From: Marinagarivorans sp.
Lineage (GTDB): Bacteria > Pseudomonadota > Gammaproteobacteria > Pseudomonadales > Cellvibrionaceae
Direction: 5' to 3'
Assembly (NCBI GenBank): GCA_028281865.1
Contig: JANQJB010000068.1
Location: 1 to 60,354, forward strand
DNA length: 60,354 nt
Position numbers and translations under genes: made by a program. The number at the start of each line of letters is the position of its first letter. The stretch's first letter is position 1. Shown here in pieces: positions 154-26,178 of the stretch. The notes below the pieces were generated by a model, which saw nothing but the letters and a program-made list of their open reading frames with translations, did no database searches and had not been told where the DNA came from.

Positions 154-453
154 CTACCGTATAATCTCGGTAATTTGAATGCCAAAGTTATCATCAACGG
201 CGCAAAGTTCACCCTTAGCGATGACTTTACCGTCTAACATAATATTTACAGCCTGATCGAGTGCTTGATCTAGTGGAACAACAGAACCTTCCCGCAATTT
301 AAAAAATGTCTCAATATCGATCGAGCCTGTTCCCACAGACACCTCTATTTTTACTTGAGCATTCTTAACCAGGTCATACTTCCCTTCAAATATCGGATTA
401 TCATTACTGCCTTCTTGTTCCAACTCAGCATATTCAATTTTATTGACCGTCAT
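154..453 (-). CDS. fliN: Flagellar motor switch protein FliN (SpoA-domain, short form)
   Basis: 99 aa. The C-terminal segment KIEVSVGTGSIDIETFFKLREGSVVPLDQALDQAVNIMLDGKVIAKGELCAVDDNFGIQITEII matches the conserved FliN/SctQ-C surface-presentation domain. It lies immediately downstream of fliM. Confidence 0.8.
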   Translation of the reverse strand: MTVNKIEYAELEQEGSNDNPIFEGKYDLVKNAQVKIEVSVGTGSIDIETFFKLREGSVVPLDQALDQAVNIMLDGKVIAKGELCAVDDNFGIQITEIIR

Positions 454-531: not shown

Positions 532-1464
532 TTAGCTACCAGAGGGATCGTGAATCTGAATTGCGCGCTTATCCCCACTTTTACCCAAATAAACACTGCA
601 CTCAATTTCACGATCTTCTACTCTCAAGAACAGAGGTTCATCCAAGGACAATTCGAGCTTAAGAATATCGCCTTTTTGCAAAGATTCCATATTATCTAGG
701 CTGAGTTCAACAGCCTTCATCTTTACCTCAAAATTGATTGAAACATCATTAAAGTGAGGCAAAAACATTTTTTCTTCAAAACCCTTATCAGAATTAATTG
801 GCGACTTTATTTCGTCAGATCGATGCAAACAGCGGTTTGCATATACATCGTAGGGTAGTAACAATAAAAAAATAATATCTGGCAAAATGACTTTCACATA
901 GATGTCGCCATTGCCAGATTTGCCAAAAGATTTAGCTGCAAAAATCTCCTTCCAAGGAGTTTTAACCGGTTTATCGCAACCTAAGAATTTGGAGACTAAA
1001 GACATTTTTAATCGATCTAATAGACGATCGACAATAAGTGTTTCGTATTCATCATGCTTTTTTTTTGGCTTTTTCTCAGCAAACGACAATACAGAACTAA
1101 TCAACTTTTCTCTGTGCATCGATTCGATCAAAAAATTAACCCATTCTCTCTCGTAGCTGATGTTACGAAAAACATTATTTTCAAACTCTAAAGCAGTAGG
1201 TTTCTCATTGACATCCGGAGCTGGATAGCTCGATGCATCTAATACCGTTCGAGTCAGCAACTCAATATTGGGAGTAGAGTCGTCGGCGTACTTAGCTTTA
1301 TTGATTTTTCGACTCTCATGACCTGAATAATAAATTTCAACGTCAAGAGGTTCCTCAAGTTTCCATTGGTTGCACCACGCGACAATGGAATCGCGAATCC
1401 AAGGCTCAATAATATTCTTCTGGCTCTTACCCAAAATAACGAATGGAGAATTGATCACACTCAT
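532..1464 (-). CDS. fliM: Flagellar motor switch protein FliM-like. It lacks the canonical N-terminal LSQxEIDALL CheY-P-binding motif.
   Basis: 310 aa. The C-terminal FliN-like segment LKLELSLDEPLFLRVEDREIECSVYLGKSG is typical of FliM. Position is between flgE and fliN. The N-terminus MSVINSPFVILGKSQ carries no EIDALL motif. Confidence 0.65.
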   Translation of the reverse strand: MSVINSPFVILGKSQKNIIEPWIRDSIVAWCNQWKLEEPLDVEIYYSGHESRKINKAKYADDSTPNIELLTRTVLDASSYPAPDVNEKPTALEFENNVFRNISYEREWVNFLIESMHREKLISSVLSFAEKKPKKKHDEYETLIVDRLLDRLKMSLVSKFLGCDKPVKTPWKEIFAAKSFGKSGNGDIYVKVILPDIIFLLLLPYDVYANRCLHRSDEIKSPINSDKGFEEKMFLPHFNDVSINFEVKMKAVELSLDNMESLQKGDILKLELSLDEPLFLRVEDREIECSVYLGKSGDKRAIQIHDPSGS

Positions 1465-1499
1465 AGCTTACTCGCAGCTCAATAGTTCCAGGTGGAAAA

Positions 1500-2714
1500 T
1501 TATGTCTGTCGACCCAGCTGTATAAGCTGTTGAATCAACTCATTGGCAACTGTAACGGTTTGAGACGCGCCCTGAAAACCGCGCTGCAATATGATAAGTT
1601 CGGTAAATTCTTGAGATAGCTCAATATTTGATATTTCAATACTATTATCGACAAGCTCTCCCATAACAGCATCAGTGGGTGCTGCAATCGTCAAATCGAT
1701 ATTTTCTGGGGCCAAATATAAACCATCTCCAAGCTGGCGAAGATCCTGCAACTGATCAAACCAAGCAAGCGCGACTTTTCCCGCATCGCGTTTTTCTTCA
1801 TTGGAATATTCCAGCTCGATTGTCCCATCACTTTGAAAGTTAATATTGAGTAACGCTCCGGTCTGAAAACCGTCCGTGCGATCCACTGATAGATTGGTTG
1901 GACCTCCGCTGGCGGTGGAGTTAGATCTGGAGCCAGGATCTCCCATGTTAAGCACAATATCGATGCTAGCGGCGTCTTCAGGCTGAAAAGCAAAGCTCAC
2001 GGTATTAAAACCTTCCTCCGGCAAGCCCCGGTCATCGAACCTCACCTCAAGGTCTCGTGCAATAACCTCGCCCTCATCATTTTCTACAACAATTAACCAG
2101 CTACGAGGAGATTCATCGATATCATTTTTATTAAAAATAAATTTTAACTCTTGAATGCGACCGAGAGAGTCGACAACTTCTACATCCTCGATTTCGTGAG
2201 TTTCTGCATTGAGGGAGATATTATCGATGAAACGTATTTCTGTAGTGGGTTCATGAGTTAGATTTCTGAGATTAGTAATATCAATATCAACTAAATTACC
2301 GTCGTCATCAAGGCCAGCGACTAGAGCATCTAAATTAGGCGAATAAAGTTTATTATCTTCGTTAAACGTGAATTGACCGACGCGCGTATAGAACCGGGTG
2401 TCACCGTTTCTCAGGATAAAAAAACCGTTTCCATTTACGGCGATATCGGTATCGCCGCCTGTCTCCTGAATATCGCCTTGACCAAAATTAATCAGTGTTC
2501 CCTTGGTTGTAACGCCGGTACCGATTTGAGAAGTCGACTGCTCTTGCCCGGTATCGCCAGTAACTTGATAACGATAAAAAAGATCCCGAAAAAGCGTGCT
2601 ACTTTTTTTAAAGCCCGGAGTATTTAGGTTAGCAACATTATTACTGACGTTGTCCAACCCTTTGGAAAATGCCTGCAACCCGGAAGCACCCTTATTAATT
2701 ACGCTAAATGACAT
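1500..2714 (-). CDS. flgE: Flagellar hook protein FlgE
   Basis: 404 aa. N-terminal rod/hook motif MSFSVINKGASGLQAFSKGLDNVSNNVANLNTPGFKKS and C-terminal motif LSQEFTELIILQRGFQGASQTVTVANELIQQLIQL. Size is typical of a hook protein. Confidence 0.85.
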   Translation of the reverse strand: MSFSVINKGASGLQAFSKGLDNVSNNVANLNTPGFKKSSTLFRDLFYRYQVTGDTGQEQSTSQIGTGVTTKGTLINFGQGDIQETGGDTDIAVNGNGFFILRNGDTRFYTRVGQFTFNEDNKLYSPNLDALVAGLDDDGNLVDIDITNLRNLTHEPTTEIRFIDNISLNAETHEIEDVEVVDSLGRIQELKFIFNKNDIDESPRSWLIVVENDEGEVIARDLEVRFDDRGLPEEGFNTVSFAFQPEDAASIDIVLNMGDPGSRSNSTASGGPTNLSVDRTDGFQTGALLNINFQSDGTIELEYSNEEKRDAGKVALAWFDQLQDLRQLGDGLYLAPENIDLTIAAPTDAVMGELVDNSIEISNIELSQEFTELIILQRGFQGASQTVTVANELIQQLIQLGRQT

Positions 2715-2725
2715 AAGCTTCGCTC

Positions 2726-3133
2726 CTACCTAACCGTGACAATTTGGCCAATAGTAATTCCGGTAATCGGAATGCCCGCTGAAGTGGTGATCGATATTTC
2801 AGGCCGCCCATTTGGAAAACTAATCGCGCTTACTTTGCCAAACTCACGCGAAGTCTCTGTCCTCACTTCCACTTCACGCCCCACCAAACTCACAGCTTGG
2901 GAGCTACTCTGCAAACTGAGAACGCCGTCAACTTTATCACTTAACTCCTGGGTTTGTTGCAGCGCTGTCAGCTGCGCAAACTGAGCCATAAACTCACCGT
3001 TGTCCATGGGCTCCAACGGATCTTGAAAAGTGAGCTGAGTTAACAGCACCTGCAAAAAATCTTCCTGAGAGAGACCCGCTCTTCGCGTTGCCGGTGTCGA
3101 GTCAAGTATTGCGCCAAAGGTTTCAACTTCCAT
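2726..3133 (-). CDS. flgD: Hook capping/assembly protein FlgD (short, Bacillus-like length)
   Basis: 135 aa. FlgD N-domain signature QEDFLQVLLTQLTFQDPLEPMDNGEFMAQFAQLTALQQ. It sits directly upstream of flgE. Confidence 0.8.
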   Translation of the reverse strand: MEVETFGAILDSTPATRRAGLSQEDFLQVLLTQLTFQDPLEPMDNGEFMAQFAQLTALQQTQELSDKVDGVLSLQSSSQAVSLVGREVEVRTETSREFGKVSAISFPNGRPEISITTSAGIPITGITIGQIVTVR

Positions 3134-3151
3134 TACAATCGCCTCACTGTA

Positions 3152-3892
3152 TTAATAAACTTTGTCTATTTCATTTCTATCGGAAAAATCAGTGTTAGTG
3201 TCCGCCTTCACATCCGCGCGGCCTAACTCTTGCCAAACATTTTTTCCATTAATGATAATCGCAGATAGCTTAACGCCATATTTTGCCAACTCACTGCGCA
3301 ATCTCTTGGCCTTATCAAAAATAATGTATGTATCGGACTCTCGACCGATATAAACCAACCTCAGTTCACCGCGATCCTCAACAACGTTCCAATTCGATCG
3401 ATCCAATTTCCCATGAGCAAAAAATTGTTCGAGAGAATTAGCTCGGCTTTTTGATTCAGTCGCATCAGGGGCTTGTTTGTTGGTTACCTTACTTGGCTCG
3501 CTATAGTGAGTCACTCCAGAAACACCAATTCTATTTTGGGACGATTTCACTTTTGCTAGTGAAAAATCTGCAGATACCTTCGGTGTTGATTTGCCATGTT
3601 GAATTTGAAATTCCGGAAACTCTGATTTTGATAAAAAATGTCCGGCAGTTGCATTACTATCGGAGTCTGAAACTGAAGTAGCAGCACTATTTTCTTTTGC
3701 AGCTTCTTCAAACGCGTGCTGTTCAGGTTTGTCATCGTTATCGCGATACTTATCGCCCTCCAGAAGCGCCTCCTCAAGAGTAGCTCGCCATTGTTGACCA
3801 TGCTGCTGGCGACTAAAAAATTCTCCAACTGACGAATTTTTTTCAGGCGCTTTTTGAATAAAAGTTGCGTCTCCGCTTGAAAAATCAGTCAT
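3152..3892 (-). CDS. FliK-slot protein, candidate hook-length control protein. It has a polar low-complexity N-terminus and a C-terminal Flg_hook-like domain.
   Basis: Occupies the fliJ-[fliK]-flgD position of the ancestral order. C-terminal segment GELRLVYIGRESDTYIIFDKAKRLRSELAKYGVKLSAIIING resembles the FliK C-domain pattern. The track ORF extends to 3958 and overlaps fliJ by 74 bp. The internal Met (MTDFSS) at 3892 is the more likely start. Confidence 0.4.
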   Translation of the reverse strand: MTDFSSGDATFIQKAPEKNSSVGEFFSRQQHGQQWRATLEEALLEGDKYRDNDDKPEQHAFEEAAKENSAATSVSDSDSNATAGHFLSKSEFPEFQIQHGKSTPKVSADFSLAKVKSSQNRIGVSGVTHYSEPSKVTNKQAPDATESKSRANSLEQFFAHGKLDRSNWNVVEDRGELRLVYIGRESDTYIIFDKAKRLRSELAKYGVKLSAIIINGKNVWQELGRADVKADTNTDFSDRNEIDKVY

Positions 3893-4394
3893 TGTTATCT
3901 CTATCGTTTCTATTTTCCAACATTGCAGATCCTCTCTGCAGATAAGCTTCTTCCACATTTTGATAGTCTTTTTCCATTAACACAGATTGAAGCTTGCCAT
4001 TATTTTCAGCATCAATTTTTTTTAACGCTTCTTTAGTGGCCAGTTTTCCGCGCAAGCGTTGATTCTGATTTTGATAAGTATTTTGTATCTTGATACATTC
4101 AGTCAAAATTTGCTGATGTTCACGCTGCTTTTGATCTGTATAGGCTCTCAGCCTCACAATATCATCAACGCTGACCTGGGCCTCGGAGGAATGCGCATTC
4201 ACCCCACCCAAGTTACTAAAAATACTTCGCAGCTGCTTTAGCTCGGTTTGACTTTTTTCCAATTCTGTTTTTTTTTCCAAAAATACATTTTTCGTTTTGG
4301 CACTGTCTCTTTCCAGCTCGTCTATTTCCCAGCTCACCTTCTTAGTATAAAGGCCCAAAGCACGCTGCTTTTTTTTAAACTTGTTGACACTCAT
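3885..4394 (-). CDS. fliJ: Flagellar export chaperone FliJ-like coiled-coil protein
   Basis: 169 aa, highly charged coiled coil, directly downstream of fliI with a 4-bp ATGA overlap. Size and position match FliJ. Confidence 0.6.
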   Translation of the reverse strand: MSVNKFKKKQRALGLYTKKVSWEIDELERDSAKTKNVFLEKKTELEKSQTELKQLRSIFSNLGGVNAHSSEAQVSVDDIVRLRAYTDQKQREHQQILTECIKIQNTYQNQNQRLRGKLATKEALKKIDAENNGKLQSVLMEKDYQNVEEAYLQRGSAMLENRNDRDNND

Positions 4395-5734
4395 AAAATA
4401 CTCTCTCGCAACTGTTTAACACTCTGGTCAAAAGCAACACGCTCATTGATACCTTGTTGCAAAAACTTCTTCATTTTGGGCAACTTAGTTAAAACCTGAT
4501 CAAGCTCAGGGTTCGAGCCTTTTTGATATGCGCCAAGATTAATTAATTCCTTTGAACGTTCGTACAGATCGAGAGATTCAACAAACTTCTTAGCCGAACC
4601 CATTACCTTTTCGTCAGCCAGTTGATGAAATAATCTACTATTACTTTGAAATAAATCTATTGCAGGAAAATGCCGCTGATTTGCCAGATCTCGGGTTAGT
4701 ACAACTCCACCATCTAAAATTGCCCGAATGCTGTCGGAAAGTGGATCGTTAGGGTCATCACCTTCGGTTAACACAGTATAAAAAGCGGTAATTGATCCTC
4801 CCGAACGATTAGTCCCGCAACGCTCCAACAATCTGGGTAGTGCAGCAAACACAGACGGCGTATAACCGCGAGCAGTTGGAGGCTCCCCTACCGCCAAACC
4901 TATTTCGCGCATCGACATTGCAAAACGGGTAATCGAATCCATCGTTAAAACAACGTTTTTTCCCAGATCACTAAAATACTCTGCGATGGCAGTCGCAGCC
5001 CAAGCGGCATGAGAACGAATTAATGGCGATTGATCGGAAGTGGCAACAATGACAACCGATTTTTTTAAGCCCTCCGGCCCCAAAACAGATTCAATAAATT
5101 CCTTAACTTCCCTACCGCGTTCACCCACTAAAGCAATGACATTGACATCGGCATTCATATTTCGGGCAATCATACCGAGAAGAGAGCTTTTACCAACGCC
5201 GCTGCCCGCAAAAATACCCATGCGCTGGCCACGACCAACAGTCAACAGGGAATCAATCACTTTTACCCCAGTCTCCAATACCTGTTCAATCCTGGGACGA
5301 TCGAGAGGGTTAATGTGCTCGCGAAATAAACCGTATCGAATATCTGAAGGAGCGAGTGACTCTCCATCAAGCGGTTTTCCGAATGCATCGACCACTCTAC
5401 CAAGTAGAGCCTCTCCTACTGGAAGATCGAGACTTTTACCCGTGCCAAAAACCTTACTGCTAAGCCGTATTCCACGAAGGTCGCCGAAAGGCATTAAGAT
5501 AACTTTATCGTTTTTAATACCGACGACTTCCGCCTTAATTGACTCCTCACCATCGGATTCAATAAAACACAGCTCGCCTAAAAAAACGTTTGGCCCGGAC
5601 GATTCTACGACAAGACCGACGATTTGATTGACACGACCAAACTCCATTTTAGATTCAAAATCAGAAATTGATTGAAGATAGTCGCGATGCAAATCACCGA
5701 TATAGTCAGAATGAGAAAAGTCGAGTTCTACCAT
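4391..5734 (-). CDS. fliI: Flagellum-specific ATPase FliI
   Basis: 447 aa. Walker A segment GIFAGSGVGKSSLLGMIARN and F1/T3SS ATPase-like sequence throughout. Confidence 0.95.
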   Translation of the reverse strand: MVELDFSHSDYIGDLHRDYLQSISDFESKMEFGRVNQIVGLVVESSGPNVFLGELCFIESDGEESIKAEVVGIKNDKVILMPFGDLRGIRLSSKVFGTGKSLDLPVGEALLGRVVDAFGKPLDGESLAPSDIRYGLFREHINPLDRPRIEQVLETGVKVIDSLLTVGRGQRMGIFAGSGVGKSSLLGMIARNMNADVNVIALVGERGREVKEFIESVLGPEGLKKSVVIVATSDQSPLIRSHAAWAATAIAEYFSDLGKNVVLTMDSITRFAMSMREIGLAVGEPPTARGYTPSVFAALPRLLERCGTNRSGGSITAFYTVLTEGDDPNDPLSDSIRAILDGGVVLTRDLANQRHFPAIDLFQSNSRLFHQLADEKVMGSAKKFVESLDLYERSKELINLGAYQKGSNPELDQVLTKLPKMKKFLQQGINERVAFDQSVKQLRESIL

Positions 5735-5762
5735 TATTTTTGCCTAGGCCGATAACACCTGA

Positions 5763-6653
5763 TCAAGATACCTGCTTATTGACACTGTTTCGATTGACTA
5801 TGCGCTGATGATGCTTATCCAGCAGCAACATTTTTAATCGGTTCATACGCTCTTCCAATCTAGCATCTAAAGTTCCCGAACTTGATTTAATAATACAACC
5901 TCCTACCTCTATAGAAGCATCACAGACGAAGCTGTCGCTGTTTAAGCCAAATAAAGTTTCCGATCGTGCTGCCCTAGTACCTCTTACATTGGCAGAACAG
6001 TCTACAATTAATTCATAGTCGCTCGGAGATAAATGGACTTTTAACGCACGAGATAGATCTAAACTTTTCAATGTTTCGCTAATAGTGTCCTTCAGATATT
6101 CGCGATAATTACCGTAACGATTGCTATGAAGGTCACCGATAAGTTTAATTACGGCATGAAACGCAATATCAAGAATCTCTTCTTCGACTTGCAGCATAAC
6201 CCCCGCAAATTGGCTTTTAACAGAATTAACAACCCCATTTAATTGCGTAATTTCTTGCTGAGCCTGTTCGAGTGCTTCCTTAGAACCACTCTCAAAGCCA
6301 TCTGCTCTGCCTGTTTCAAAGCCCTGTTTTTGGTTTTCCTCTCGTTCAGCGTACAGAGTTTCGAGTGAACTTTCGGACTCCTCCAAGCGGAGTCGATAAT
6401 TTTCGGATTGCGCTTTTTCTTTCTCAAGTTCACCTTTTAACTGTTCTATTTCCGTTAACAACGACTGATAATCGCGTTGTTCATCAATAAAATCGACTTC
6501 GAGATTTTCAGTTGCACTCGAAAAATCCGAGCACGCCTTGTCATCTACTTGAGTTTCATTTTTAGTCGCTTTAGAACAGGCTGTATTTTGACGTCCAGCG
6601 AGAACTTTGCGATCGCCGTCAGATAAGGTGTTTGACCTAATTACCGTTGCCAT
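5763..6653 (-). CDS. fliH: Flagellar assembly protein FliH (ATPase regulator) with N-terminal extension
   Basis: 296 aa. Glu/Gln-rich coiled coil followed by the FliH C-terminal region LDIAFHAVIKLIGDLHSN...IEVGGCIIKSSSGTLDARLEERMNRLK. Located between the fliG slot and fliI. Confidence 0.7.
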   Translation of the reverse strand: MATVIRSNTLSDGDRKVLAGRQNTACSKATKNETQVDDKACSDFSSATENLEVDFIDEQRDYQSLLTEIEQLKGELEKEKAQSENYRLRLEESESSLETLYAEREENQKQGFETGRADGFESGSKEALEQAQQEITQLNGVVNSVKSQFAGVMLQVEEEILDIAFHAVIKLIGDLHSNRYGNYREYLKDTISETLKSLDLSRALKVHLSPSDYELIVDCSANVRGTRAARSETLFGLNSDSFVCDASIEVGGCIIKSSSGTLDARLEERMNRLKMLLLDKHHQRIVNRNSVNKQVS

Positions 6654-7426
6654 AACATATTTTTCTCCTTCAACAGAGGAAGAGATTCCAACTGATCCTC
6701 TTCAATCTCATCTTTTACCTCGGCCTTATTCGAATCTGTAATTCGCGTTGAAAATTCCGAACTGTCTTCTTTAGCATCAACTGGATTCATCAAAATAGTA
6801 GGTTCATCGCTATTATCTAGCGACTCAGACGAACCCTCACTAAACTCTTTCGCGTTCCGATTCTCTGCAACCGCATCCTCCCACTCGATCCAACCAGGAT
6901 TTTCTTCGTCGAGATCAATTTTCACGAAAGATTCCGGCCTGCAATTCACATCAGTTGTGTCGGAATCAATTTCGTTATCCAGCACCTCCAAGAAGACGGA
7001 CATTAACTCAATGCGAATAGATTTTTCGACCGCAGTTTCCTGTACATTTTTTCGCAGTGCTCGTCGCGCACGTTCACCATGTTTTTTTGCATATCGATGA
7101 TAAAAATCATCTCGCCAAAACCAGGGATAGAGACTAAGAAGTAAGGCAAGCGCATCTGGCCGATGATTAACAAGAGCCCGACAAACTTGAATTGCATCAA
7201 CCTTGTCAATTTTTTCCACCAAATTTGACTCCGTCGTGCGAGAGGCATTTAAACGACTAAAAAATTCCTGAGTCTGACTATCCGAGGGAATGCCTAGCTC
7301 TTTAAGTTCTCGCAATAATTTTTTAATTGAGAAAAGGTATTCTGTCGGCAAATGAGACAGTAGCCAATCTCTATCCTTGACATTAAGCCCGTGTAAATAC
7401 AAAGCGACTTTTTTTAAGCTACTCAT
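6641..7426 (-). CDS. fliG: FliG-like rotor protein with N-terminal and middle domains only. The C-terminal torque-generating domain is replaced by an acidic low-complexity tail.
   Basis: 261 aa in the fliF-fliG-fliH slot. The segment RALVNHRPDALALLLSLYPWFW resembles the FliG middle-domain EHPQ region. No FliG_C-like sequence is found in any frame between 6400 and 6700. The C-terminus is D/E/S-rich (EFSEGSSESLDNSDEP...DEIEEDQLESLP). Confidence 0.55.
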   Translation of the reverse strand: MSSLKKVALYLHGLNVKDRDWLLSHLPTEYLFSIKKLLRELKELGIPSDSQTQEFFSRLNASRTTESNLVEKIDKVDAIQVCRALVNHRPDALALLLSLYPWFWRDDFYHRYAKKHGERARRALRKNVQETAVEKSIRIELMSVFLEVLDNEIDSDTTDVNCRPESFVKIDLDEENPGWIEWEDAVAENRNAKEFSEGSSESLDNSDEPTILMNPVDAKEDSSEFSTRITDSNKAEVKDEIEEDQLESLPLLKEKNMLWQR

Positions 7427-7435
7427 TTTATTTCT

Positions 7436-8998
7436 CTACAGCTTCGCTACTTTCGAAGAATCGCGATCGGAGTCCAACCATTCCTTCAGAGTCTGTAACA
7501 TTTGCTCACGCTCTTCAGTCGACATAGTTTTTTCTCTTTTGAAACTTCTGATAAGCACAAAAATAACAAGCAAACCAAACAGAGATAAGCCAATAATCCC
7601 AAACGTTTTTAGATTTTCCACTTTACTTAACGAGCTTATCAAGTCATTTGTCGCAACCTGCATATCACTCGGGCCCCGCATTTCAATCGAACCCTGTATT
7701 CCACGATCAGCTACATAATGCTCGTTGCTATTTTGATTAATATCACCCAAACCGCTTAACTCTTTATCAACAGAGCTCTCATTATCACCAGAGCTCTCGG
7801 CTATCATCGGCGCCATATCGGGTTCGTCACGATATAAACTGTTTTTAGAAGCATAAGGTTGTTCGGGAATTTCATTAGAATTTGTGGCGAAAGGGTAAAC
7901 TACAATCGCATCGCCACGCTCGCTGTCGAGACCGACGGCCATAGACACCAAGTCCTTTATTTGTTGGATTACAGTGTCTGAAGTATTCTCCGGCACCAAC
8001 ACCCCAACACTCATTTTTTTAATCGTTCCCGGTTGATTAACTGTTTGGGAAACCGAACGGCCAACCATATATTCTTCTTCTGTAGTCACTCTGCCTTGTT
8101 CTGTTTTTTTCATACCGCCCTCCTCAGTTTTCGACTCTCGCCTACGCAGCAAACCCTGACCCGATTCGCCTACAGGAAGGACATTTTCATGCGTTGTGGT
8201 CGACTGACTATAATCGAGCGTCAAATCTATACTTATCGCAAAATCATTGGCATCAAACGCACGTGCTAATACTTCTTCCGCTTTACCTTTTAAATAATTT
8301 TCTATAGATTGCTTCTGCAGTAACCCGGCCGACATCACTCTCATGGCAGGACTGTCTAAGGTCCGACTCAGTGTTACACCATTTTGATCAAGCACTGTGA
8401 CATCATCGGGAATTAATTGCGGAACTGATGCGGCAACAAGTTGCTGAACACCGCGAATCTGACTTGTCGTTGGAATCACATGAGGTCGCAAAAATAAGGT
8501 GACCGACGCCGTCGCTTTTCTATCTTTTCTTTTAAAGAGACCGTTTTCTGGCAACACAAGATGAACACGCGCGTATTTAACCTCATCAAGCGACATAATT
8601 GTGCGCGTAAGTTCACCCTGAAGCGCGCGTTGAAAGTTCACTTTTTGGGCGAATTCTGTCGCACCAAAACCCGAATCATCAAAAATTTCAAAGCCAACTC
8701 CGCCTTGCAACGCGACACCAGAACCCATTAATTTTAGACGCGTCGCATGCACCTCATCTTCAGGAACCAAAACCAGCTCACCGTCACCGACAATTTCATG
8801 AGAAATTTTTAGTCGCTCAAGTTCCTGAACAATCGCGGCAGCATCCTGGGGCTGCAAGTCATTAAATAGTACGCCGTAGTTATCGCGCATTAGCCAAAAA
8901 ATACCTGCGCCTAACATAACGACCAACAAAATAATTCCAATAATCAATCCGATAGGAAGTCTTCCACCCTCAGATTTCCACGATTCCGATATTGCCAT
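7436..8998 (-). CDS. fliF: Flagellar MS-ring protein FliF
   Basis: 520 aa. N-terminal TM and YscJ/FliF domain ...GIFWLMRDNYGVLFNDLQPQDAAAIVQELERLKISHEIVGDGELVLVPEDEVHATRLKLMG, and a second TM near the C-terminus. Confidence 0.9.
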   Translation of the reverse strand: MAISESWKSEGGRLPIGLIIGIILLVVMLGAGIFWLMRDNYGVLFNDLQPQDAAAIVQELERLKISHEIVGDGELVLVPEDEVHATRLKLMGSGVALQGGVGFEIFDDSGFGATEFAQKVNFQRALQGELTRTIMSLDEVKYARVHLVLPENGLFKRKDRKATASVTLFLRPHVIPTTSQIRGVQQLVAASVPQLIPDDVTVLDQNGVTLSRTLDSPAMRVMSAGLLQKQSIENYLKGKAEEVLARAFDANDFAISIDLTLDYSQSTTTHENVLPVGESGQGLLRRRESKTEEGGMKKTEQGRVTTEEEYMVGRSVSQTVNQPGTIKKMSVGVLVPENTSDTVIQQIKDLVSMAVGLDSERGDAIVVYPFATNSNEIPEQPYASKNSLYRDEPDMAPMIAESSGDNESSVDKELSGLGDINQNSNEHYVADRGIQGSIEMRGPSDMQVATNDLISSLSKVENLKTFGIIGLSLFGLLVIFVLIRSFKREKTMSTEEREQMLQTLKEWLDSDRDSSKVAKL

Positions 8999-9025: not shown

Positions 9026-9385
9026 TTAAATCGACATCCGCATAATTTCTTGATATCCCTCAAGTACTCGATTGCGCACCTGCACCAGCAACTCAAAAGA
9101 AACCTTGGCTTTTTCAAGTGACATCATGACTTGATGCAGGTTTTCTGTTTCGCCCAGCGCCAGTTGCTGCAATTGCTTTTCCGACGACATAATTTGATTG
9201 TTAACAGTGCTCACCTCCCGCTCAAGCCAATCGACAAAAGTTAAGCCCTGAAATTCAGCCCCATTACTGTCCTGACTCTGATGACCCTGGACATTACCCG
9301 CATTTGACAAAATGCTGGAATTGAAAAGCGAGCTAGAAATACTCGCGTCGATAGATTGCACTGGGTTAAGCTCGCTGGACATCAA
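9026..9385 (-). CDS. fliE: Flagellar hook-basal body protein FliE
   Basis: 119 aa. C-terminus LHQVMMSLEKAKVSFELLVQVRNRVLEGYQEIMRM is typical of FliE. Located upstream of fliF and downstream of flgC. Confidence 0.8.
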   Translation of the reverse strand: MMSSELNPVQSIDASISSSLFNSSILSNAGNVQGHQSQDSNGAEFQGLTFVDWLEREVSTVNNQIMSSEKQLQQLALGETENLHQVMMSLEKAKVSFELLVQVRNRVLEGYQEIMRMSI

Positions 9386-9816
9386 TTCGCTCCTATCTCT
9401 AACGCACGTAGAGTCATAGCGCGTGCGGCGTTAATCACTTTGACATTAGCTTCGTACGCTCTTTTAGACTTCATTAAAGTCACCATTTCAGTAACGGGAT
9501 TAATATCGGGGAATGCAACAAAACCCGACTCATTAGCATCTGGGTGAGACGGATCGAACACCAGATTAGGTTCGCCCTCAACTTGTTGAATATCAACAAT
9601 TTCGACTCCCCCAATTGAGCGTTTAACAGAGTCAAAAAGCAATGAAAAATCAGTGTTAATTTTTTCACCGACAACAACCTTTAAAGGTTTGTAAACTCCG
9701 CCTTCAGCTGTTCGCGTGGTATTAACATTAGCCAAATTCAACGCAACAATATCAAGCGTATGTCTTTGAACATCCATACCAGAAGCAGCAATTTCAAATG
9801 CAGAAAAATAATTCAT
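9382..9816 (-). CDS. flgC: Proximal rod protein FlgC
   Basis: 144 aa. MNYFSAFEIAASGMDVQRHTLDIVALNLANVNTTRT and C-terminal VTEMVTLMKSKRAYEANVKVINAARAM. 4-bp overlap with fliE. Confidence 0.9.
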   Translation of the reverse strand: MNYFSAFEIAASGMDVQRHTLDIVALNLANVNTTRTAEGGVYKPLKVVVGEKINTDFSLLFDSVKRSIGGVEIVDIQQVEGEPNLVFDPSHPDANESGFVAFPDINPVTEMVTLMKSKRAYEANVKVINAARAMTLRALEIGAN

Positions 9817-9819
9817 GAC

Positions 9820-10209
9820 TTATCCTCGCGCACCGTCAATGGCCATTCTTATAATTGCTCCGCGCTTTGAGTTCGCCTCTAGCAAAGCGCGGTAATGAAG
9901 CGTGTTTTGCGTTAAGCGAATCATTTCTTGATCCAGCTGAACCTCAGCATCAGCGCGTGGCGAAATATACGTTTTTTCAGTTAAATTTAATTTAAGTTCG
10001 TCGAAGTCCTGCCTAAAAGCTGTCTCGTTTAACGAGCCGTTATCCATGTATTTTGCTAGTTCTCGTTCGAAACTGAGTTTTTTTGCCGCGAAGCCCGGGG
10101 TGTCTGCATTGGCGACATTGTGGGCAATAACCTCATGGCGAAGTAGCGCCGCATCCAGCGCTAAACTCACTAATTTTGATGTCACTCCACCCAAATCATC
10201 TATTGTCAT
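9820..10209 (-). CDS. flgB: Proximal rod protein FlgB
   Basis: 129 aa. Rod N-motif LRHEVIAHNVANADTPGF and C-terminal MIRLTQNTLHYRALLE. Confidence 0.85.
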   Translation of the reverse strand: MTIDDLGGVTSKLVSLALDAALLRHEVIAHNVANADTPGFAAKKLSFERELAKYMDNGSLNETAFRQDFDELKLNLTEKTYISPRADAEVQLDQEMIRLTQNTLHYRALLEANSKRGAIIRMAIDGARG

Positions 10210-10243
10210 TTTTCACTCCTGTATTTTTATATACAAAACTCAT

Positions 10244-11422
10244 TTATTGAATAATTAATTCCGCATGTAACGCACCAGCGCGTTTAACACCTTGTAAAAT
10301 AGTAATAATGTCTCGACTCGATGCGCGTACTTTATTCAGCGCAGCAACTAATTCGGCAACCGTCGAATGATTAGGCAGCGATACAGCTATGCCCTGTTCC
10401 TCATCTATCGCGATATCCGTTTGAGGGATAACTTGCGTGCGCACACCTTCGCCAGTGCCAATCACAGAAAATGGCTGCGAAACGACGAATTCCGTGCTAA
10501 TGGCAACATTTAAATCGCCGTGAGTAATTGTGATTGGTGCGATCCTGACTTCGCCACCGGCAACAACCGTACCCGTTCTTTCATTCACCACAACGCGTGA
10601 TGGCCGATCAGGTACAACAAAAGTATTTTCGATTTTGGATATCAGAGGAACGAGATTCTTTTGTCGGGAGTTATGCGAAGCTCCGAGCGAAATCTTCACA
10701 CGTGCAGCATCTACTGCCCAAGCATTATCGGGACCGACCAAGGCTTGTAATGCTTTAGCAATACGATCGGCAGTAGCAAAATCTGGTTCGTAAAGATAAT
10801 ATTCGATCGTGTTGTCGGCACCGACCAAATCAATATCAAGACGACGTTCCACCATAGCACCGCCTGCTATGTGTGCGGCTGTTGGATGATTTTTTTGCGT
10901 AATATTACCGTTGAGATCATAGCTATAACCGCCAACGGAAACGGGCCCCTGCGCTAACGCGTAGATCTTCTGATCCGCTCCAAGCAGATGCGTCAATAAT
11001 AGTGTTCCACCCACCAAACTTCTCGCATCTCCCATCGAAGTAACATTGACATCCACTTTATTGCCAATCTGCACATAGGCAGGTAGCGTTGCTGTTACCA
11101 TTACTGTTGCTGCGTTGCGACTTCGCATTTCATCTAGCGGTACATTAACGCCAAATTTCTGCAAAATATTTTTAACCGATTGCAGCGTCGCAAGGCTGCG
11201 ACTCGAATCTCCCGTTCCTGCGAGACCCGTTACGATGCCATAGCCAACGAGGGAATTTTCTTTCGCACTGGAGATACGCGATAAATCTTTAATTTTCACA
11301 CCGACGCCTGCCGACTCTGCGTAGGCATTACTCGATAACAGCACACACAACAAAAGTGTCGCAACAAAATGAAAATATATTTTCAATGCAAGAAAATGAT
11401 ATCGGATCATTAGAATACCCAA
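10244..11422 (-). CDS. flgI: Flagellar P-ring protein FlgI
   Basis: 392 aa. Signal peptide, then VKIKDLSRISSAKENSLVGYGIVTGLAGTGD and FlgI-typical sequence throughout. Confidence 0.9.
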   Translation of the reverse strand: MGILMIRYHFLALKIYFHFVATLLLCVLLSSNAYAESAGVGVKIKDLSRISSAKENSLVGYGIVTGLAGTGDSSRSLATLQSVKNILQKFGVNVPLDEMRSRNAATVMVTATLPAYVQIGNKVDVNVTSMGDARSLVGGTLLLTHLLGADQKIYALAQGPVSVGGYSYDLNGNITQKNHPTAAHIAGGAMVERRLDIDLVGADNTIEYYLYEPDFATADRIAKALQALVGPDNAWAVDAARVKISLGASHNSRQKNLVPLISKIENTFVVPDRPSRVVVNERTGTVVAGGEVRIAPITITHGDLNVAISTEFVVSQPFSVIGTGEGVRTQVIPQTDIAIDEEQGIAVSLPNHSTVAELVAALNKVRASSRDIITILQGVKRAGALHAELIIQ

Positions 11423-11979
11423 TTAACTACCCGTGTTAGAAAGCCTGGTTTTTGCCGTTTTCCGAGCAGGCCATCGCCCATATACGTAATCTTCGCATCT
11501 GCTACCCGAGTGGAGACAACAGTGTTCTCAGTACTGATATCCTCGGGTCTCACTCGCCCAGAAACGTGAATAAATTGCTTCTCATTATTAAACTCTATCA
11601 GCTGCTTTCCTTCGATTAGCATCTCCGCACTGTCTAATATTTCGCGGATCGTAACGGTAACACTCGCTATTAATTTTCCGGTTCTGCTAACGGTACCGCC
11701 ACCTTTAAATTTATTGTTAAATTCTAAGTTGCCGATTTCACTGCGACTCTTTTTGCCAGCACCGGCAGATAGGTCCATCGACTTATTCGTATCAGTCCCC
11801 GCCGATGTCGCTGCGGAAGCCTGCTCGTAAATCAATATCGTCAAACTTTCACCGACTTGATGTGAACGATGATCTTCCACTAGAGCACTATATTTCTTTT
11901 CATCAAACAAGGTCTGCGAAAAACCGGTCTGGGTCATCATTGCAATAAAAATGAGTAATATACCCATCACTCTTTTCAT
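11410..11979 (-). CDS. flgH: Flagellar L-ring lipoprotein FlgH
   Basis: 189 aa. Signal peptide, then SLTILIYEQASAATSAGTDTNKS...VTVTIREIL and C-terminal GKRQKPGFLTRVVNWVF, as in FlgH. Confidence 0.85.
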   Translation of the reverse strand: MKRVMGILLIFIAMMTQTGFSQTLFDEKKYSALVEDHRSHQVGESLTILIYEQASAATSAGTDTNKSMDLSAGAGKKSRSEIGNLEFNNKFKGGGTVSRTGKLIASVTVTIREILDSAEMLIEGKQLIEFNNEKQFIHVSGRVRPEDISTENTVVSTRVADAKITYMGDGLLGKRQKPGFLTRVVNWVF

Positions 11980-12026
11980 GCTACTGTCCTCTCTATCTTG
12001 TAATCATCTCTGGCTTTACAGCGGGT

Positions 12027-13040
12027 TTAATTAACAACGACTTTCCCCGGACCGACAACAACTGCATTATATTTAGCTGTACTACCGGTATTTTTAATTT
12101 CAACCGTGTCAAATTGATTCCCTTCAGCTAGCGCAATTCCGTTAATCGTCAATGAGACTCCTCCCGACTTTGCGAACACACTAACCTGTTGGCCGATGGA
12201 TACTAGCGGCACCGGTTCAATTATGTCAGTGGTTAACAGCTCTCCCCGGCGCAAGCTTTTGGTCACACGCATAGCTCGACTATTGCTAAACTTATCAAGT
12301 ACAAAAGATGCAGTGCCAGCTATGTTGACTCGCATTTTTTTAAAATTCTTCACATCAATTTCGCTGTAGCGTTTAATATCCTCAGTCGCAACCAATGCAT
12401 TTTGATAAACCTCAACTCGATACCAAATCGGAACAGTCTGATAATGTTCTCGATCGATTAACACGTCCACTAAAACACACATTTTCTCAGAAAGACGGTT
12501 TTTGATTTGTAATTGTGGTCGCAACGACACTAGTCCCTCTGGAACACTATAATCCTTGGCACCTTTAAAAAGAGACACCCTAAAGTCCCCGTGATCTTCG
12601 GATAACCATCGCTGCAAAAACTCTCCTGCCTGTTGTTCTAATTGTTTCGCAGAGAGTTCGATACCGCTTGAATAAACATTAACAATGTCGCTACCTCGCC
12701 ATTGAACGCTTTTGTATATTTCTGGAAACATCTTTTTAAAAGCAACTTTTAACTCAGCCTGAGTAACCAAATCAAGAAAACCGAAACGCTTTACTTTCCC
12801 GGCAATGTTTTCTGAAATTTGCGTTCGTTGATTCCGACCAAATCCATCAAAGCGCGCTAGATCGGCCCAACGATAATGCAATTGCTCCACATGAGCTTCC
12901 GAATTAAGCGTTATTACTTTGGGCTTTTGATTTGTATCAGATGCATAAGATTTAACAATGCAAACAGCACCCAGCAGGAGCAGTAGTACCGTCCGTAGCG
13001 ATATAAAAGATATTAAATATTTAGATAACACGCTTTTCAC
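12027..13040 (-). CDS. flgA: P-ring assembly chaperone FlgA-like, with an extended N-terminal domain
   Basis: 337 aa. Signal peptide. The C-terminal SAF-like domain ends GIALAEGNQFDTVEIKNTGSTAKYNAVVVGPGKVVV, as in FlgA. Located between flgH and flgG. Confidence 0.7.
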   Translation of the reverse strand: MKSVLSKYLISFISLRTVLLLLLGAVCIVKSYASDTNQKPKVITLNSEAHVEQLHYRWADLARFDGFGRNQRTQISENIAGKVKRFGFLDLVTQAELKVAFKKMFPEIYKSVQWRGSDIVNVYSSGIELSAKQLEQQAGEFLQRWLSEDHGDFRVSLFKGAKDYSVPEGLVSLRPQLQIKNRLSEKMCVLVDVLIDREHYQTVPIWYRVEVYQNALVATEDIKRYSEIDVKNFKKMRVNIAGTASFVLDKFSNSRAMRVTKSLRRGELLTTDIIEPVPLVSIGQQVSVFAKSGGVSLTINGIALAEGNQFDTVEIKNTGSTAKYNAVVVGPGKVVVN

Positions 13041-13837
13041 TAACGATTAAGCCCATTAATAATTTCCAAAATCTCATTGGATGTTTGCACTACCTTTGCG
13101 CCCATTTCGTAACCGCGCTGGGCTAACAGCAAATTCGTCATTTCGTTGACTAGCGCGACGTTTGAACCCTCCAGCGCTCCTTGCTGAATCCGACCAAAAC
13201 CATCTTCGCTAGGTGTTCCAGAAAAGCCATCACCCGAAATTTCGTTTGCCAAATAAATATTATCCCCCGAAGGTGTGAGTCCGGTTGGGTTCATAAATTT
13301 GACCAATTCCATTTGACCAATTTCAAACAGGTCATCTCGACCAACAACCTTCGCCATAAAACGACCATCCGCTTGAACAAGCAAGGATTCCATATCATCC
13401 GGAATCACTATGGCAGGCCTCAGCGGGTAGCCATCTGAATTAACAACAAGGCCATCTTCCCCAACCATTAAATTACCCACGCGTGTATAGGCCGATGAGC
13501 CGTCAGGCAATAAGACTTCGATAAAACCCTCTCCTTGAATCGCAACATCAAGAGGTCTATCAGTTAAGGTCATATCACCCTGAGCAAACTCCTTGCGAAT
13601 TAACCCTACTCCTGTCCCCAAACCTACAAATGACTGCGGCGCTTGCGCACCCATTAGATCTGTCGCCTCTCTAATTGCTATAGACATTAAGTCTTCAAAT
13701 TGGACAGTACTTTTTTTAAAGCCAGCAGTATTGACGTTAGCGAGATTATTCGCAATCACATCAATTTGCATCTGCTGGGCATGCATACCTGAAGCCGCAA
13801 TATTTAACGAATCTACCATTATTTTTCTCCCGTCCAA
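13040..13837 (-). CDS. flgG: Distal rod protein FlgG
   Basis: 265 aa. LNIAASGMHAQQMQIDVIANNLANVNTAGFKK and C-terminal GSNVALVNEMTNLLLAQRGYEMGAKVVQTSNEIL. Confidence 0.9.
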   Translation of the reverse strand: MDGRKIMVDSLNIAASGMHAQQMQIDVIANNLANVNTAGFKKSTVQFEDLMSIAIREATDLMGAQAPQSFVGLGTGVGLIRKEFAQGDMTLTDRPLDVAIQGEGFIEVLLPDGSSAYTRVGNLMVGEDGLVVNSDGYPLRPAIVIPDDMESLLVQADGRFMAKVVGRDDLFEIGQMELVKFMNPTGLTPSGDNIYLANEISGDGFSGTPSEDGFGRIQQGALEGSNVALVNEMTNLLLAQRGYEMGAKVVQTSNEILEIINGLNR

Positions 13838-13885
13838 AAATTTAACAAATATCTGTCAATCATTTAGTTTCTAGGTAAAAACTAA

Positions 13886-14647
13886 CTAAAAATCCGCAAT
13901 CGTCGATATCGCTTCACCGAGCATATCGTCATAACCTCGCATTAACCGTTGCGTCATCTCTAAATGTCTTACTGTCTTCATCATTAAAATCATCTCGTCC
14001 AATGGCTTAACATTGGAGTCTTCTACAAAACCTTGGCGCACGTTAATAGAACTCTCATCAAGCGCTTGTGTTTCCGCGCGTGACAAATATAAGCCTTCAC
14101 CAACTTTTTGAACTTTTGTTAAGTCCTTAACATTTACAATTTTCAGTTGCGCAATAAAGTTCTCACCATCCCAAATACGCCCTAGCGAATCGATTTTCGG
14201 TGTTTCACTAAGCAAACGTATTTCTCCACCCATTCCCTGCAAGGGATATTTTCCGCCAACAACCAGTCGCCCCATCGAATCCAATGTGAAAGAACCACCC
14301 CTAGAAACAGCTACACCATTATTTGTAGCAACTTCAAAAAAACCATCGCCTTCAATTGCCACATCGAGAGCTCTACCCGTTTGTTTTAAAGCCGCCGGAG
14401 AAAAGTCGGTCAAATGCCGAACGTTGGGTACATCTGATGCAATGCTTTGCTCACCGCTTATTCGCTCTAAAAGGTGTCCATGGTCAATAAAACCCGCATT
14501 TTTTAACATTGCCGAAAAATCAGAAACCAATACTCGATCGCGCTTAAAACTTTGCGTACCAAGATTCGCTACGTTATGGCTAATTGACTGCATAATTTTT
14601 AAATCATTTGACAAACTCAATTCACTTATCGATATCGCATCTGACAT
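13886..14647 (-). CDS. flgF: Proximal rod protein FlgF
   Basis: 253 aa. Rod-family N-motif ...SISHNVANLGTQSFKRD and C-terminal NVKPLDEMILMMKTVRHLEMTQRLM. Located downstream of flgG. Confidence 0.8.
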   Translation of the reverse strand: MSDAISISELSLSNDLKIMQSISHNVANLGTQSFKRDRVLVSDFSAMLKNAGFIDHGHLLERISGEQSIASDVPNVRHLTDFSPAALKQTGRALDVAIEGDGFFEVATNNGVAVSRGGSFTLDSMGRLVVGGKYPLQGMGGEIRLLSETPKIDSLGRIWDGENFIAQLKIVNVKDLTKVQKVGEGLYLSRAETQALDESSINVRQGFVEDSNVKPLDEMILMMKTVRHLEMTQRLMRGYDDMLGEAISTIADF

Positions 14648-14666: not shown

Positions 14667-14966
14667 TCAACTGTTTTTATCTCGTTTATAACTTTCGTGT
14701 AAATCGTATTTTTCTATCGCATCTAAACCATAAATATGTACTAAAAGTATGGCTACAACTTGAAACAGATCCTCACTGATCTCCGCGTAAAGCGGTAATT
14801 GAAAAAGTCGATCCAGTAATTCTCGATCTTCGATTAATCGCTTATCGCTCGCTCTTTGCCTCTCAGTTACAATCTCCTCGGCATACTTGCCCAGTTGCTT
14901 AACCACGATTTTAGGTGCGCCATCATCGGCTTCATATTTGATACCGACTAATTTCTTAAGCGACAC
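14667..14966 (-). CDS. Stand-alone FlhB C-terminal-domain homologue (FhlB/YlqH-like small protein)
   Basis: 99 aa. EEIVTERQRASDKRLIEDRELLDRLFQLPLYAEISEDLFQVVAILLVHIYGL parallels the cytoplasmic C-domain of FlhB/SctU. It lacks the TM region and the NPTH site. Confidence 0.65.
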   Translation of the reverse strand: MSLKKLVGIKYEADDGAPKIVVKQLGKYAEEIVTERQRASDKRLIEDRELLDRLFQLPLYAEISEDLFQVVAILLVHIYGLDAIEKYDLHESYKRDKNS

Positions 14967-14996
14967 AAAAGCCTCTCAAATCGCACACATTCATCT

Positions 14997-16325
14997 CTAC
15001 CAATAGCGGCTAAAACTGTCCAATTGCGCAGTATGATCGATCACTGCATTGACAACAGCTGCTGAGCTGGTGTTTATTCTTTTCTCGTGCCTCTCTTGGT
15101 TATCCTCGGACAGTTTGTCATATGTCACTTGATCTACTGCCCATCCGAATTCTTGCAATAGCTCTTCCAAATATTCTTGTCGTTCTGAAAAGCGGTTGGC
15201 TGTTTCAGCCTGTTCCAAATGCAAAGCCAAATTAATCCTGCGCTGCTGAACAGTCGCTTCGACCTCAACCTGTCCAAGATTTTCTAATTGCAGTGAAAAA
15301 ATGATTCGATTTAGTGGATATTTCTCTTCTTTGCCTTTTCCCTCTCGCTTATTTTCGGAAAAAACGGCTATATCTATTTCTACTAAACTATCTTGGTACA
15401 AAAAGGGAATGGACTGAAAGCTATGACGCATTTGACCCGAATTCTGTATATTCAATAACATCTCGGCCAGATTTAATCTTGGATCATAGTCACCCTCGTC
15501 ATATAAATCTGGCGGCTGATCTTCAGATAAACCTGAAACAATCGTTTTATCCGCGACATGGGAGTTACTTTTTGGGGAAACTTTGTTTTTTGAATTAAAG
15601 CGCGGATTTAATTCACTGAGCGCCTGATTGCGCGAACGAGCATAGTCACTTAAATAATTCGATAATATAGCCACAAACGATTTGTTGTCAGCTAACTGCC
15701 CTTCCGTGGACAAAACTTCCTCTGAAAGCCTCGAAAACGAAACCTCGGGAGGTTTAACAATACTATCTGGCGAAGATTTTTCTGAAGATAATCTCGCTAA
15801 TTGTTGATGCAAGGTCTTTAGCGTAGATTCGCGCAGAGGCAAATCTAACTTGCGCAGCATTACAGCAGTTTTCAGAAGCAACAAAGCGTCCATTTGACTC
15901 AATGGACGCATTAAATTTTCCATGGTTTTTAATTGGCTAGCATCAAGCTTAATTTGATATTGTTTAAAAAATTCCGATACAAAATTTTTGGAATTTTCTA
16001 AAGTCACCTCAGCATTGAACGTTGAAATCGCACTGTGTTGCTGATGAATACGTTTTAGAAAAACCCTGCTATCTTTTATTGCAGTTACACGGGTGTGTAC
16101 CGTTTCACCTTTAACAAGCGCCACCTCGCTATCGACCACCTGGTTGCGATCATTAAATTGAACGGTATAGCGACCAGGCTCGTCATGTTGACGAAGTACT
16201 TTTCCTTTAATAACTTGCCCAACTGTCAAGGTCGAAGCAAAATCACCGCTCTGAGGTAAAATTAGTGCATGGCCTAATTGCATCGTACCACTTTGCAACG
16301 CTGAAACGATTTCGGAGATATTCAC
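14997..16325 (-). CDS. FliK-like protein (Flg_hook C-terminal domain). Second hook-length-control candidate.
   Basis: 442 aa. The C-terminal segment LQLENLGQVEVEATVQQRRINLALHLEQAETANRFSERQEYLEELLQEFGWAVDQVTY matches the FliK C-domain pattern (L.L.P..LG.V.V.L...). It is adjacent to the FlhB-CTD-like gene, a common FliK pairing. Confidence 0.45.
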   Translation of the reverse strand: MNISEIVSALQSGTMQLGHALILPQSGDFASTLTVGQVIKGKVLRQHDEPGRYTVQFNDRNQVVDSEVALVKGETVHTRVTAIKDSRVFLKRIHQQHSAISTFNAEVTLENSKNFVSEFFKQYQIKLDASQLKTMENLMRPLSQMDALLLLKTAVMLRKLDLPLRESTLKTLHQQLARLSSEKSSPDSIVKPPEVSFSRLSEEVLSTEGQLADNKSFVAILSNYLSDYARSRNQALSELNPRFNSKNKVSPKSNSHVADKTIVSGLSEDQPPDLYDEGDYDPRLNLAEMLLNIQNSGQMRHSFQSIPFLYQDSLVEIDIAVFSENKREGKGKEEKYPLNRIIFSLQLENLGQVEVEATVQQRRINLALHLEQAETANRFSERQEYLEELLQEFGWAVDQVTYDKLSEDNQERHEKRINTSSAAVVNAVIDHTAQLDSFSRYW

Positions 16326-18429: not shown

Positions 18430-18434
18430 GGCCG

Positions 18435-19541: not shown

Positions 19542-19589
19542 TCACCGATTACTAATGAGTCATAAAATCCAATTAATACCGATCGCACA

Positions 19590-20366: not shown

Positions 20367-20599
20367 GACCTGCTTTGTCGCGTATCGCTATCCTCGCAAT
20401 GCTGCATCGCCTTTGGTTCTCTATTACCTATTAATAAAACGTTACCTAATACCAAATTGGAAATCGATTATGATGCTACACATTTATTTAATACTTATTT
20501 CAGCACTCGCTATATTGAGACGCAGATAGCTGAAGCAGTTCATATCTTCAATAAATTCTCTTTTTAACTCAGTTAAGAGAACTACTTTTTCCCAATTCG

Positions 20600-20866
20600 T
20601 CAAAAAAAATTCGGTATATTTGCTATAAGATTTCTGGAGAAATCGACGACCATGCTCAACATCCACGGACCCAGAACAATCAGCGAAATGGCTACTGTAA
20701 AAAGTTTTGGAATAAAAGCAAGAGACATTTCTTGGATTTGGGTAATTACTTGAAAAATACTGATCATCAAACCAACTAACATTGTGAAACCCAGTATCGG
20801 AGCACATACCTTAATTGCAGTCCACATCATCTCGGAAGAAATAACCATTGCTAGGTCATTGGTCAT
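20600..20866 (-). CDS. fliQ: Flagellar export apparatus protein FliQ
   Basis: 88 aa, two TM segments. MWTAIKVCAPILGFTMLVGLMISIFQVITQIQEMSLAFIPKLF is a FliQ/SctS signature. Confidence 0.9.
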   Translation of the reverse strand: MTNDLAMVISSEMMWTAIKVCAPILGFTMLVGLMISIFQVITQIQEMSLAFIPKLFTVAISLIVLGPWMLSMVVDFSRNLIANIPNFF

Positions 20867-26177: not shown

Positions 26178-26178
26178 T

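Follow-up and report, generated by a model that had tools for sequence, protein, structure and literature searches.

Can a flagellar-type apparatus be built around a FliG that has no torque-generating half? It is through FliG that ion flow becomes rotation, and the question is raised by a contig of Marinagarivorans sp. (JANQJB010000068.1, assembly GCA_028281865.1; 60,354 nucleotides). We analyzed this whole stretch, hereafter "the window," which carries one flagellar-type operon on the minus strand (154-20866). In the slot between fliF and fliH, the ORF encodes only 261 amino acids (aa). An earlier note, made from the sequence alone, proposed that this protein retains features of the N-terminal and middle domains of FliG and lacks the C-terminal domain that contacts the stator. 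Our comparisons support its interpretation as a FliG homologue with N-like and M-like domains and without the C-terminal torque domain. They also show that it belongs to a conserved and widespread system, and is not a peculiarity of one genome, an aspect that the earlier note overlooked.

The relationship to FliG lies beyond the reach of standard searches. The 261-aa protein matched nothing in Pfam and NCBIfam even at E ≤ 1, and is thus below the curated FliG thresholds of both collections, while a word-indexed homologue search returned only the protein itself. Homology emerged only with a profile of the family described below. All 12 matches of this profile among the sequences of the PDB were FliG, the best being the full-length protein of Aquifex (3hjl, E 2.6e-4), and several were chains containing FliG_M only. 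Comparison with canonical FliG using hhalign gave a probability of 91% (E 1.1e-6). Residues 1-152 of the window protein are colinear with residues 3-186 of E. coli FliG, apart from a gap of ~35 residues that falls within the latter half of FliG_N, and the profile alignment finds no counterpart past E. coli residue 186. Residues 66-156 matched FliG_M with a probability of 94.6% (E 7e-8), against only 10-16% for FliG_C (E about 2e-3). In an AlphaFold2 model, residues 1-156 form ten helices, most with a pLDDT near 90, and the tail (about 157-261) is predicted to be disordered (pLDDT <50). We also considered that the protein might not be a FliG orthologue at all and that the slot was filled by recruitment of a helical-repeat protein of the MgtE_N type, serving some unrelated function in regulation. 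Sequence identity to FliG is indeed only 10-16%, and weak Pfam matches to MgtE_N are slightly more common than those to FliG_M (23 versus 20 among 76 family members). Beside the structure model, MgtE reaches just 4.3-4.6. We regard such a recruitment as very improbable and have rejected it.

Could the torque domain be encoded nearby, or be hidden in the protein? The earlier note had seen no FliG_C-like sequence in the frames around the ORF, and this can now be said of the entire contig. A canonical FliG HMM, made from E. coli FliG and the FliG of three control loci, gave only noise when searched against all stop-to-stop segments of the 60,354-bp contig in six frames; this four-sequence HMM is insensitive, since it failed even on the short FliG. 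Searches of the contig by tblastn with the C-terminal halves of FliG gave best E values of 0.5-1.3, none of them within 5700-7500. Weak Pfam matches to FliG_C do occur in 17 of the 76 family members, and all those inspected are below threshold. We read them as probable cross-matches between the repeated domains of FliG, and not as a hidden C domain, because in P0005, the sole member inspected for overlap, the FliG_C match covers the same residues as the FliG_M match, and because the family HMM matches canonical FliG in its M as well as its C region.

The short form turned out to be common. An exhaustive HMMER search over 1.84 billion representatives (cut-off E ≤ 1e-3) returned 510 cluster representatives; the best 150 listed have lengths of 135-250 aa and align to the query only over residues 1 to about 155. 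Four residues (A8, D18, W102, and W104) do not vary across an alignment of 76 sequences. When species-representative genomes were scanned with FliF, 30 loci were obtained, and the family HMM identified a short ORF directly after fliF in 24 loci, a count that includes two plasmid loci added at a later stage. FliG has 331-341 aa and the EHPQ motif in the four control loci, which have ordinary flagella and one of which is cut at a contig end. Nei-Gojobori dN/dS values ranged from 0.09 to 0.56 across eight locus pairs, all below 1, with the caveat that some of the pairs show saturation or spurious N-terminal extensions introduced by the ORF calls. These values indicate that the short fliG is under purifying selection. 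Fusions of FliF with the short FliG were called in two high-GC loci (L005 and L007); they are probably artifacts of naive ORF calling and were not used. In three other loci, of Pleionea and Sphingomonadaceae (L023, L028, and L029), the ORF between fliF and fliH has 116-142 aa and was missed even by the family HMM, so still more divergent or shorter proteins exist in this slot.

The junctions of the gene are those of an intact reading frame. The ORF starts with ATG after a gap of 9 nucleotides from the fliF stop, and the ATG of fliH lies within its last codons (...AAT ATG TTA TGG CAA CGG TAA, i.e., ...N M L W Q R *), giving the 13-bp overlap that the earlier note had reported and that recurs in one related locus (L001). 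The family C terminus is often LWRR or LWRQ, and the window protein ends with LWQR; hence, the frame is intact along the whole tail. The low complexity of the C-terminal 100 residues, which are unlike those of other members, could raise the suspicion that a sequencing or assembly indel truncated a full-length fliG. Yet the frame runs on to the family-type C terminus and the start of fliH, FliG_C-like coding potential is lacking in every frame, and the homologues, both listed and fetched, are equally short. The probability of an indel is practically negligible, in line with the opinion of the earlier note that a simple frameshift is unlikely, and we rejected this explanation. The tail itself is acidic, as had been noticed (29% Asp plus Glu in residues 157-255), and among family members it was found in this contig alone.

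The neighborhood of the gene is as conserved as its length. The related loci share the gene order fliQR-flhBA-flgFGAHIBC-fliEF-shortG-fliHIJ-X-flgDE-fliM-like-fliN-(O)P-FliA-like sigma factor across beta-, gamma-, and alphaproteobacteria and on plasmids. They include loci of Burkholderiales (Roseateles, Polaromonas, Ramlibacter, Pandoraea, and Methyloversatilis), Rhodanobacteraceae, Lysobacteraceae, Kangiellaceae, Pleionea, and Sphingomonadaceae. A fully annotated copy is found in plasmid pUYM01 of Undibacterium sp. YM2; there, the NCBI annotation pipeline (PGAP) gives the short FliG as hypothetical, and the annotation contains neither a motility-specific gene nor a flagellin, junction, or cap. 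The megaplasmid of Ralstonia solanacearum YC45 (CP011998.1) has a canonical fliG-fliH-fliI-fliJ-fliK block at 1-5118 and, about 12 kb away, a short-FliG cluster at 16782-32511, with the short FliG (28225-28875) again annotated as a hypothetical protein. Since this replicon carries both, the short-FliG cluster is a paralogous system in its own right and not just the debris of the cell's only flagellum. FlhA of the window is 53-58% identical to its counterparts within the short-FliG family, about 40% to proteobacterial flagellar FlhA, and 33-35% to SctV. In a rough neighbor-joining tree, bootstrap values of 100 support both the grouping of the family with proteobacterial flagellar FlhA and its separation from SctV; the monophyly of the family itself received 59% only.

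These data also bear on the idea that the operon is a decaying flagellar remnant and its short gene a truncated fliG pseudogene on the way to loss. Motor, filament, and chemotaxis-coupling parts are absent, flgI is split in two in one plasmid copy, and the authors who studied Lysobacter speak of lost genes (PMC9927559), all of which would fit decay. It is hard to reconcile with the short architecture of the best 150 of 510 representatives and its four invariant residues, with dN/dS below 1 in every pair tested, with the intact operon genes of the window and the recurrent fliH overlap, and with an identical gene order over three proteobacterial classes and plasmids. Furthermore, expression and protein export have been reported for the Lysobacter system (PMC7688988). 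We therefore rejected the pseudogene reading, which seems to us highly unlikely.

What is missing from the clusters is equally consistent. Searches by phmmer with E. coli MotA, MotB, FliC, FliD, FliS, FlgL, FlgJ, FlgM, and FlgN revealed nothing among the ORFs of the contig or of the approximately 25 loci syntenic with it, and FlgK gave only two marginal matches (about E 4e-4), in two loci. The lack of stator genes, previously stated for this cluster, thus applies to its relatives as well, and the short form is found in related genomes in clusters without motAB. The earlier note overlooked that genes for the filament, junction, and cap are also absent. The export gate, the MS ring, the rod, the P and L rings, and the hook are all encoded. 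The cluster shares these parts with motility flagella and differs from them by having no stator, FliC, FlgL, or FliD in the loci searched. Because FliG_C is missing together with the stator, the filament, and chemotaxis coupling in the operon, we read the apparatus as non-rotating. The earlier phrase, "a rotor that cannot couple to a stator," is the natural inference from such a sequence.

One may still imagine a rotating flagellum in which filament, junction, and stator are supplied in trans, and where torque passes through another surface of the rotor or a separate FliG_C-like subunit. The hosts Ralstonia YC45 and Xylophilus (PMC13436205) also carry a complete canonical flagellar system. Genes for the hook, for hook-length control, and for the P/L bushing are kept, which is most sensible for a rotating axial structure, and the rest of the Marinagarivorans genome is unseen. 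On the other hand, FliG_C-like sequence is absent from the contig, stator, flagellin, and junction genes occur in none of the about 25 loci, and the family consensus, read by eye, shows no conserved charged ridge. The FliM-slot protein has no visible CheY-binding N terminus and no detectable middle domain, and Lysobacter species whose gene set is similar bear no flagella (PMC9927559). On balance, we find rotation with parts supplied in trans unlikely.

How could such a protein work? The partner proteins offer some clues. In the window, the cytoplasmic tail of FliF after the second transmembrane helix has ~34 residues (7436-7540, minus strand), and about 30-35 across the family, compared with about 80-100 in canonical FliF. 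This tail keeps an amphipathic helix with a tryptophan, L..L..W(L/I)(D/E), which resembles the canonical ...VIRQW(I/M)... end. The latter is the part of FliF that binds FliG_N in FliF-FliG complexes. The short FliF tail parallels the deletion of ~35 residues in the FliG_N-like domain. In the 310-aa FliM-slot protein, PDB profile searches and hhalign against E. coli FliM found only a C-terminal SpoA/FliN-type domain. W30 and W34 are invariant or nearly so in the family of this protein, and its N terminus, read by eye, has no LSQxEIDALL-type CheY-binding peptide. The earlier note overlooked the apparent lack of a recognizable FliM middle domain in this slot. In domain content, the protein resembles SctQ more closely than FliM.

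We propose that the 261-aa protein is probably a divergent FliG orthologue that has kept only the parts anchoring it in the basal body, and that it serves as a static adaptor between the MS ring and the platform of a non-rotating export apparatus. The shortened FliG_N-like domain would dock on the conserved tryptophan-containing helix at the C terminus of FliF. The protein would present its FliG_M-type armadillo domain to a platform of FliM-like protein and FliN, which could recruit FliH-FliI to the export gate and allow efficient type III export. With helix_MC, ARM_C, and the C-terminal bundle gone, including the charged torque helix that contacts MotA, no surface for MotA would be left. The machine may then be a non-rotating export or surface apparatus of the hook-basal-body type. 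Its operon is self-contained and derived from the flagellum: besides export gate and ATPase complex, it encodes the MS ring, rod, P/L rings, hook, and hook cap, as well as a platform of the FliN/SctQ type and a sigma factor of its own.

Compared with canonical FliG (E. coli b1939, Aquifex 3HJL, and the Salmonella C-ring 8UMD), the short form occupies the same fliF-fliH slot, has a FliG_M armadillo domain and a weak FliG_N-like domain, and has a FliF partner with a C-terminal tryptophan-containing helix. It differs by the absence of helix_MC, ARM_C, and the torque-helix domain, by the shorter FliG_N, and by scores below every Pfam and NCBIfam FliG threshold; the window copy differs further by its 100-aa acidic disordered tail. 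Several observations weigh against the adaptor role or limit it. By sequence, residues 1-62 match FliG_N weakly (hhalign 10%, E 3e-3), and the FliM-binding EHPQR motif of canonical motors is not conserved: the window protein has H-R-P-D at EHPQ and Ala at the place of Arg160, and the family consensus keeps only the E and a shifted P. Of the N- and M-like features that had been claimed, the resemblance to the M domain stands, the EHPQ region is not kept, and the resemblance to the N domain is weak. The proposed platform link is tentative, since no FliM middle domain is recognizable in the FliM-slot protein by PDB profile search or hhalign, and the AlphaFold2 model of the latter (pLDDT 39) was unusable and was discarded. 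The adaptor role does not account for the acidic tail of ~100 aa. Stators, flagellins, or a separate FliG_C-like protein could lie elsewhere in a genome of which only 60 kb are known. Finally, the likeness to the Lysobacter enzymogenes OH11 and Xylophilus systems discussed below concerns gene content, together with the presence of Lysobacteraceae and Burkholderiales loci among our matches, and not sequence.

The proposed role has a parallel in the injectisome, where SctK connects the inner-membrane ring to the SctQ pods as an adaptor. Both would be small cytoplasmic adaptors from a membrane ring to a sorting platform of the SctQ/FliN type. The parallel is a functional analogy only: a SctK homologue was considered, and the short FliG showed no sequence or fold match to SctK (YscK, OrgA, PscK). 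The cluster also differs from injectisomes in that its FlhA groups with flagellar FlhA and not with SctV, and in that it encodes FlgH/FlgI rings and a FlgE hook instead of a secretin and a needle. We suggest, tentatively and with somewhat less than even confidence, a second route from the flagellum to a non-rotating type III export or surface apparatus, independent of the injectisome. Stator, filament, and the torque half of FliG might have been shed along this route and the rod, hook, and P/L rings kept. The short FliG would then be both the marker of the system and its static ring-to-platform adaptor, in a system widespread in environmental Proteobacteria and also borne on plasmids.

This type of cluster has been noticed before, in Lysobacter and Xylophilus; the identification of the FliG-slot gene as a FliG without torque domain and the breadth of its family appear to be new. 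In the open-access literature, we found only these reports and no paper describing a truncated FliG in this slot or the extent of the family. Lysobacter enzymogenes OH11, which is non-flagellated, has a flagellar type III secretion-like system with the export gate, FliI, FliF, rod, P/L rings, FlgD, FlgE, and FliN (PMC7277350, PMC7688988, PMC9927559). By BLAST, fliC, fliD, flgK/L, fliG, fliM, fliH, fliJ, and motAB were not found there, and the authors considered that divergent homologues might exist; export of FlgD and several toxic proteins by the system nevertheless takes place and depends on FliI and FlhB (PMC7688988, PMC9927559, PMC7277350). Its gene set is similar to ours, and the syntenic relatives of the window include loci of Lysobacteraceae and Rhodanobacteraceae, but these papers treat fliG as lost or undetectable and describe no short FliG. 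The "FlhA3" system of Xylophilus ASV27 and KACC 21265 encompasses FlgABCDEFGHI, FlhAB, and FliAEFHIJMNOPQR, with no flagellin and no annotated fliG (PMC13436205, a 2026 survey). Its authors suggested that the "missing" fliG is perhaps among the hypothetical proteins; they only mention the FlhA3 system and did not analyze fliG (PMC13436205). The predicted gene list is the same as in the present clusters, the host belongs to Burkholderiales, and the placement of its FlhA beside the flagellar class is consistent with our rough tree.

These results may have wider consequences. A natural and conserved FliG reduced to its anchoring half separates the structural and export role of the protein from its torque role and makes this separation directly testable. 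In genome surveys, such clusters are entered under "partial" or "lost" flagella, with the protein labeled hypothetical by PGAP; the short FliG provides a simple sequence marker for a large and mostly unannotated class of flagellum-like clusters. If they are indeed non-rotating exporters, they would be a living parallel to the proposed first step toward the injectisome, the loss of motility parts. The one studied candidate relative, that of Lysobacter, has been linked to toxin export (PMC7688988).

The operon of the window (Table 1) is read from fliQ through fliR, flhB, flhA, the FliK-like and FlhB-C-like genes, flgF, flgG, flgA, flgH, flgI, flgB, flgC, fliE, and fliF, and continues after the 261-aa ORF with fliH, fliI, the FliJ-like gene, the 268-aa gene, flgD, flgE, the 310-aa FliM-slot gene, and fliN. 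All these genes are intact. The window spans the contig from end to end, and the operon breaks off at the left end just after fliN; as all related loci have (fliO), fliP, and a FliA-like sigma factor gene next, we expect the same genes just past the contig end.

Table 1. Features of the flagellar-type operon in the window, in operon order
Feature	Position	Strand	Remark
FlhA, FlhB, FliR, FliQ (export gate; operon start)	16327..20866	-	
Stand-alone FlhB-C-like protein (99 aa) and FliK-like protein with Flg_hook domain	14667..16325	-	
FliE, FlgC, FlgB, FlgI, FlgH, FlgA, FlgG, FlgF (rod, P ring, L ring)	9026..14647	-	
FliF (MS ring)	7436..8998	-	
Short FliG homologue, 261 aa	6641..7426	-	Residues 1-62 FliG_N-like, 66-156 FliG_M-like, 157-261 disordered acidic tail ending LWQR
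Folded core of short FliG, residues 1-156	6958..7426	-	Sole part common to the family
Lineage-specific acidic disordered tail of short FliG	6641..6957	-	Last codons overlap fliH start by 13 bp
FliH	5763..6653	-	
FliI ATPase	4391..5734	-	
FliJ-like coiled-coil protein	3885..4394	-	Assigned by position only
268-aa protein in the canonical FliK slot	3152..3958	-	No Pfam match
FlgD hook cap	2726..3133	-	
FlgE hook protein	1500..2714	-	
FliM-slot protein	532..1464	-	Only C-terminal SpoA/FliN-type domain recognizable
FliN	154..453	-	

The similarity of the 99-aa protein is confined to the C-terminal part of FlhB (Bac_export_2), and it is paired with the FliK-like protein between flhA and flgF; by BLAST, the pair was seen in no related locus but that of Methyloversatilis (L002), and flhA abuts flgF in five of the eight loci checked. 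In the FliK slot, between the FliJ-like gene and flgD, the related loci carry a poorly conserved ORF of 230-456 aa. With the 268-aa gene in that slot and the FliK-like gene with its Flg_hook domain, the window has two candidate hook-length proteins.

The contig represents an otherwise unsampled lineage. Those of its proteins that were tested and are present in the collection are all singletons at 90% identity among 15 billion sequences, the closest FliF is just 52% identical, and the GC content is ~42%. Two proteins with TPR repeats (197 and 399 aa) are encoded at 21463-23239 on the plus strand, divergently from the operon start. Two very large ORFs without Pfam match, of 1125 and 1815 aa, lie at 34971-38348 (minus) and 45784-51231 (plus); on the Undibacterium plasmid, the flagellar-type cluster is ~3 kb from a giant gene for a "tandem-95 repeat protein." Finally, a FeeM-type N-acyl amino acid synthase, a methyltransferase, and a LuxR-type autoinducer-binding regulator are grouped at 40487-42666 on the plus strand, and may constitute a small signaling-lipid locus.

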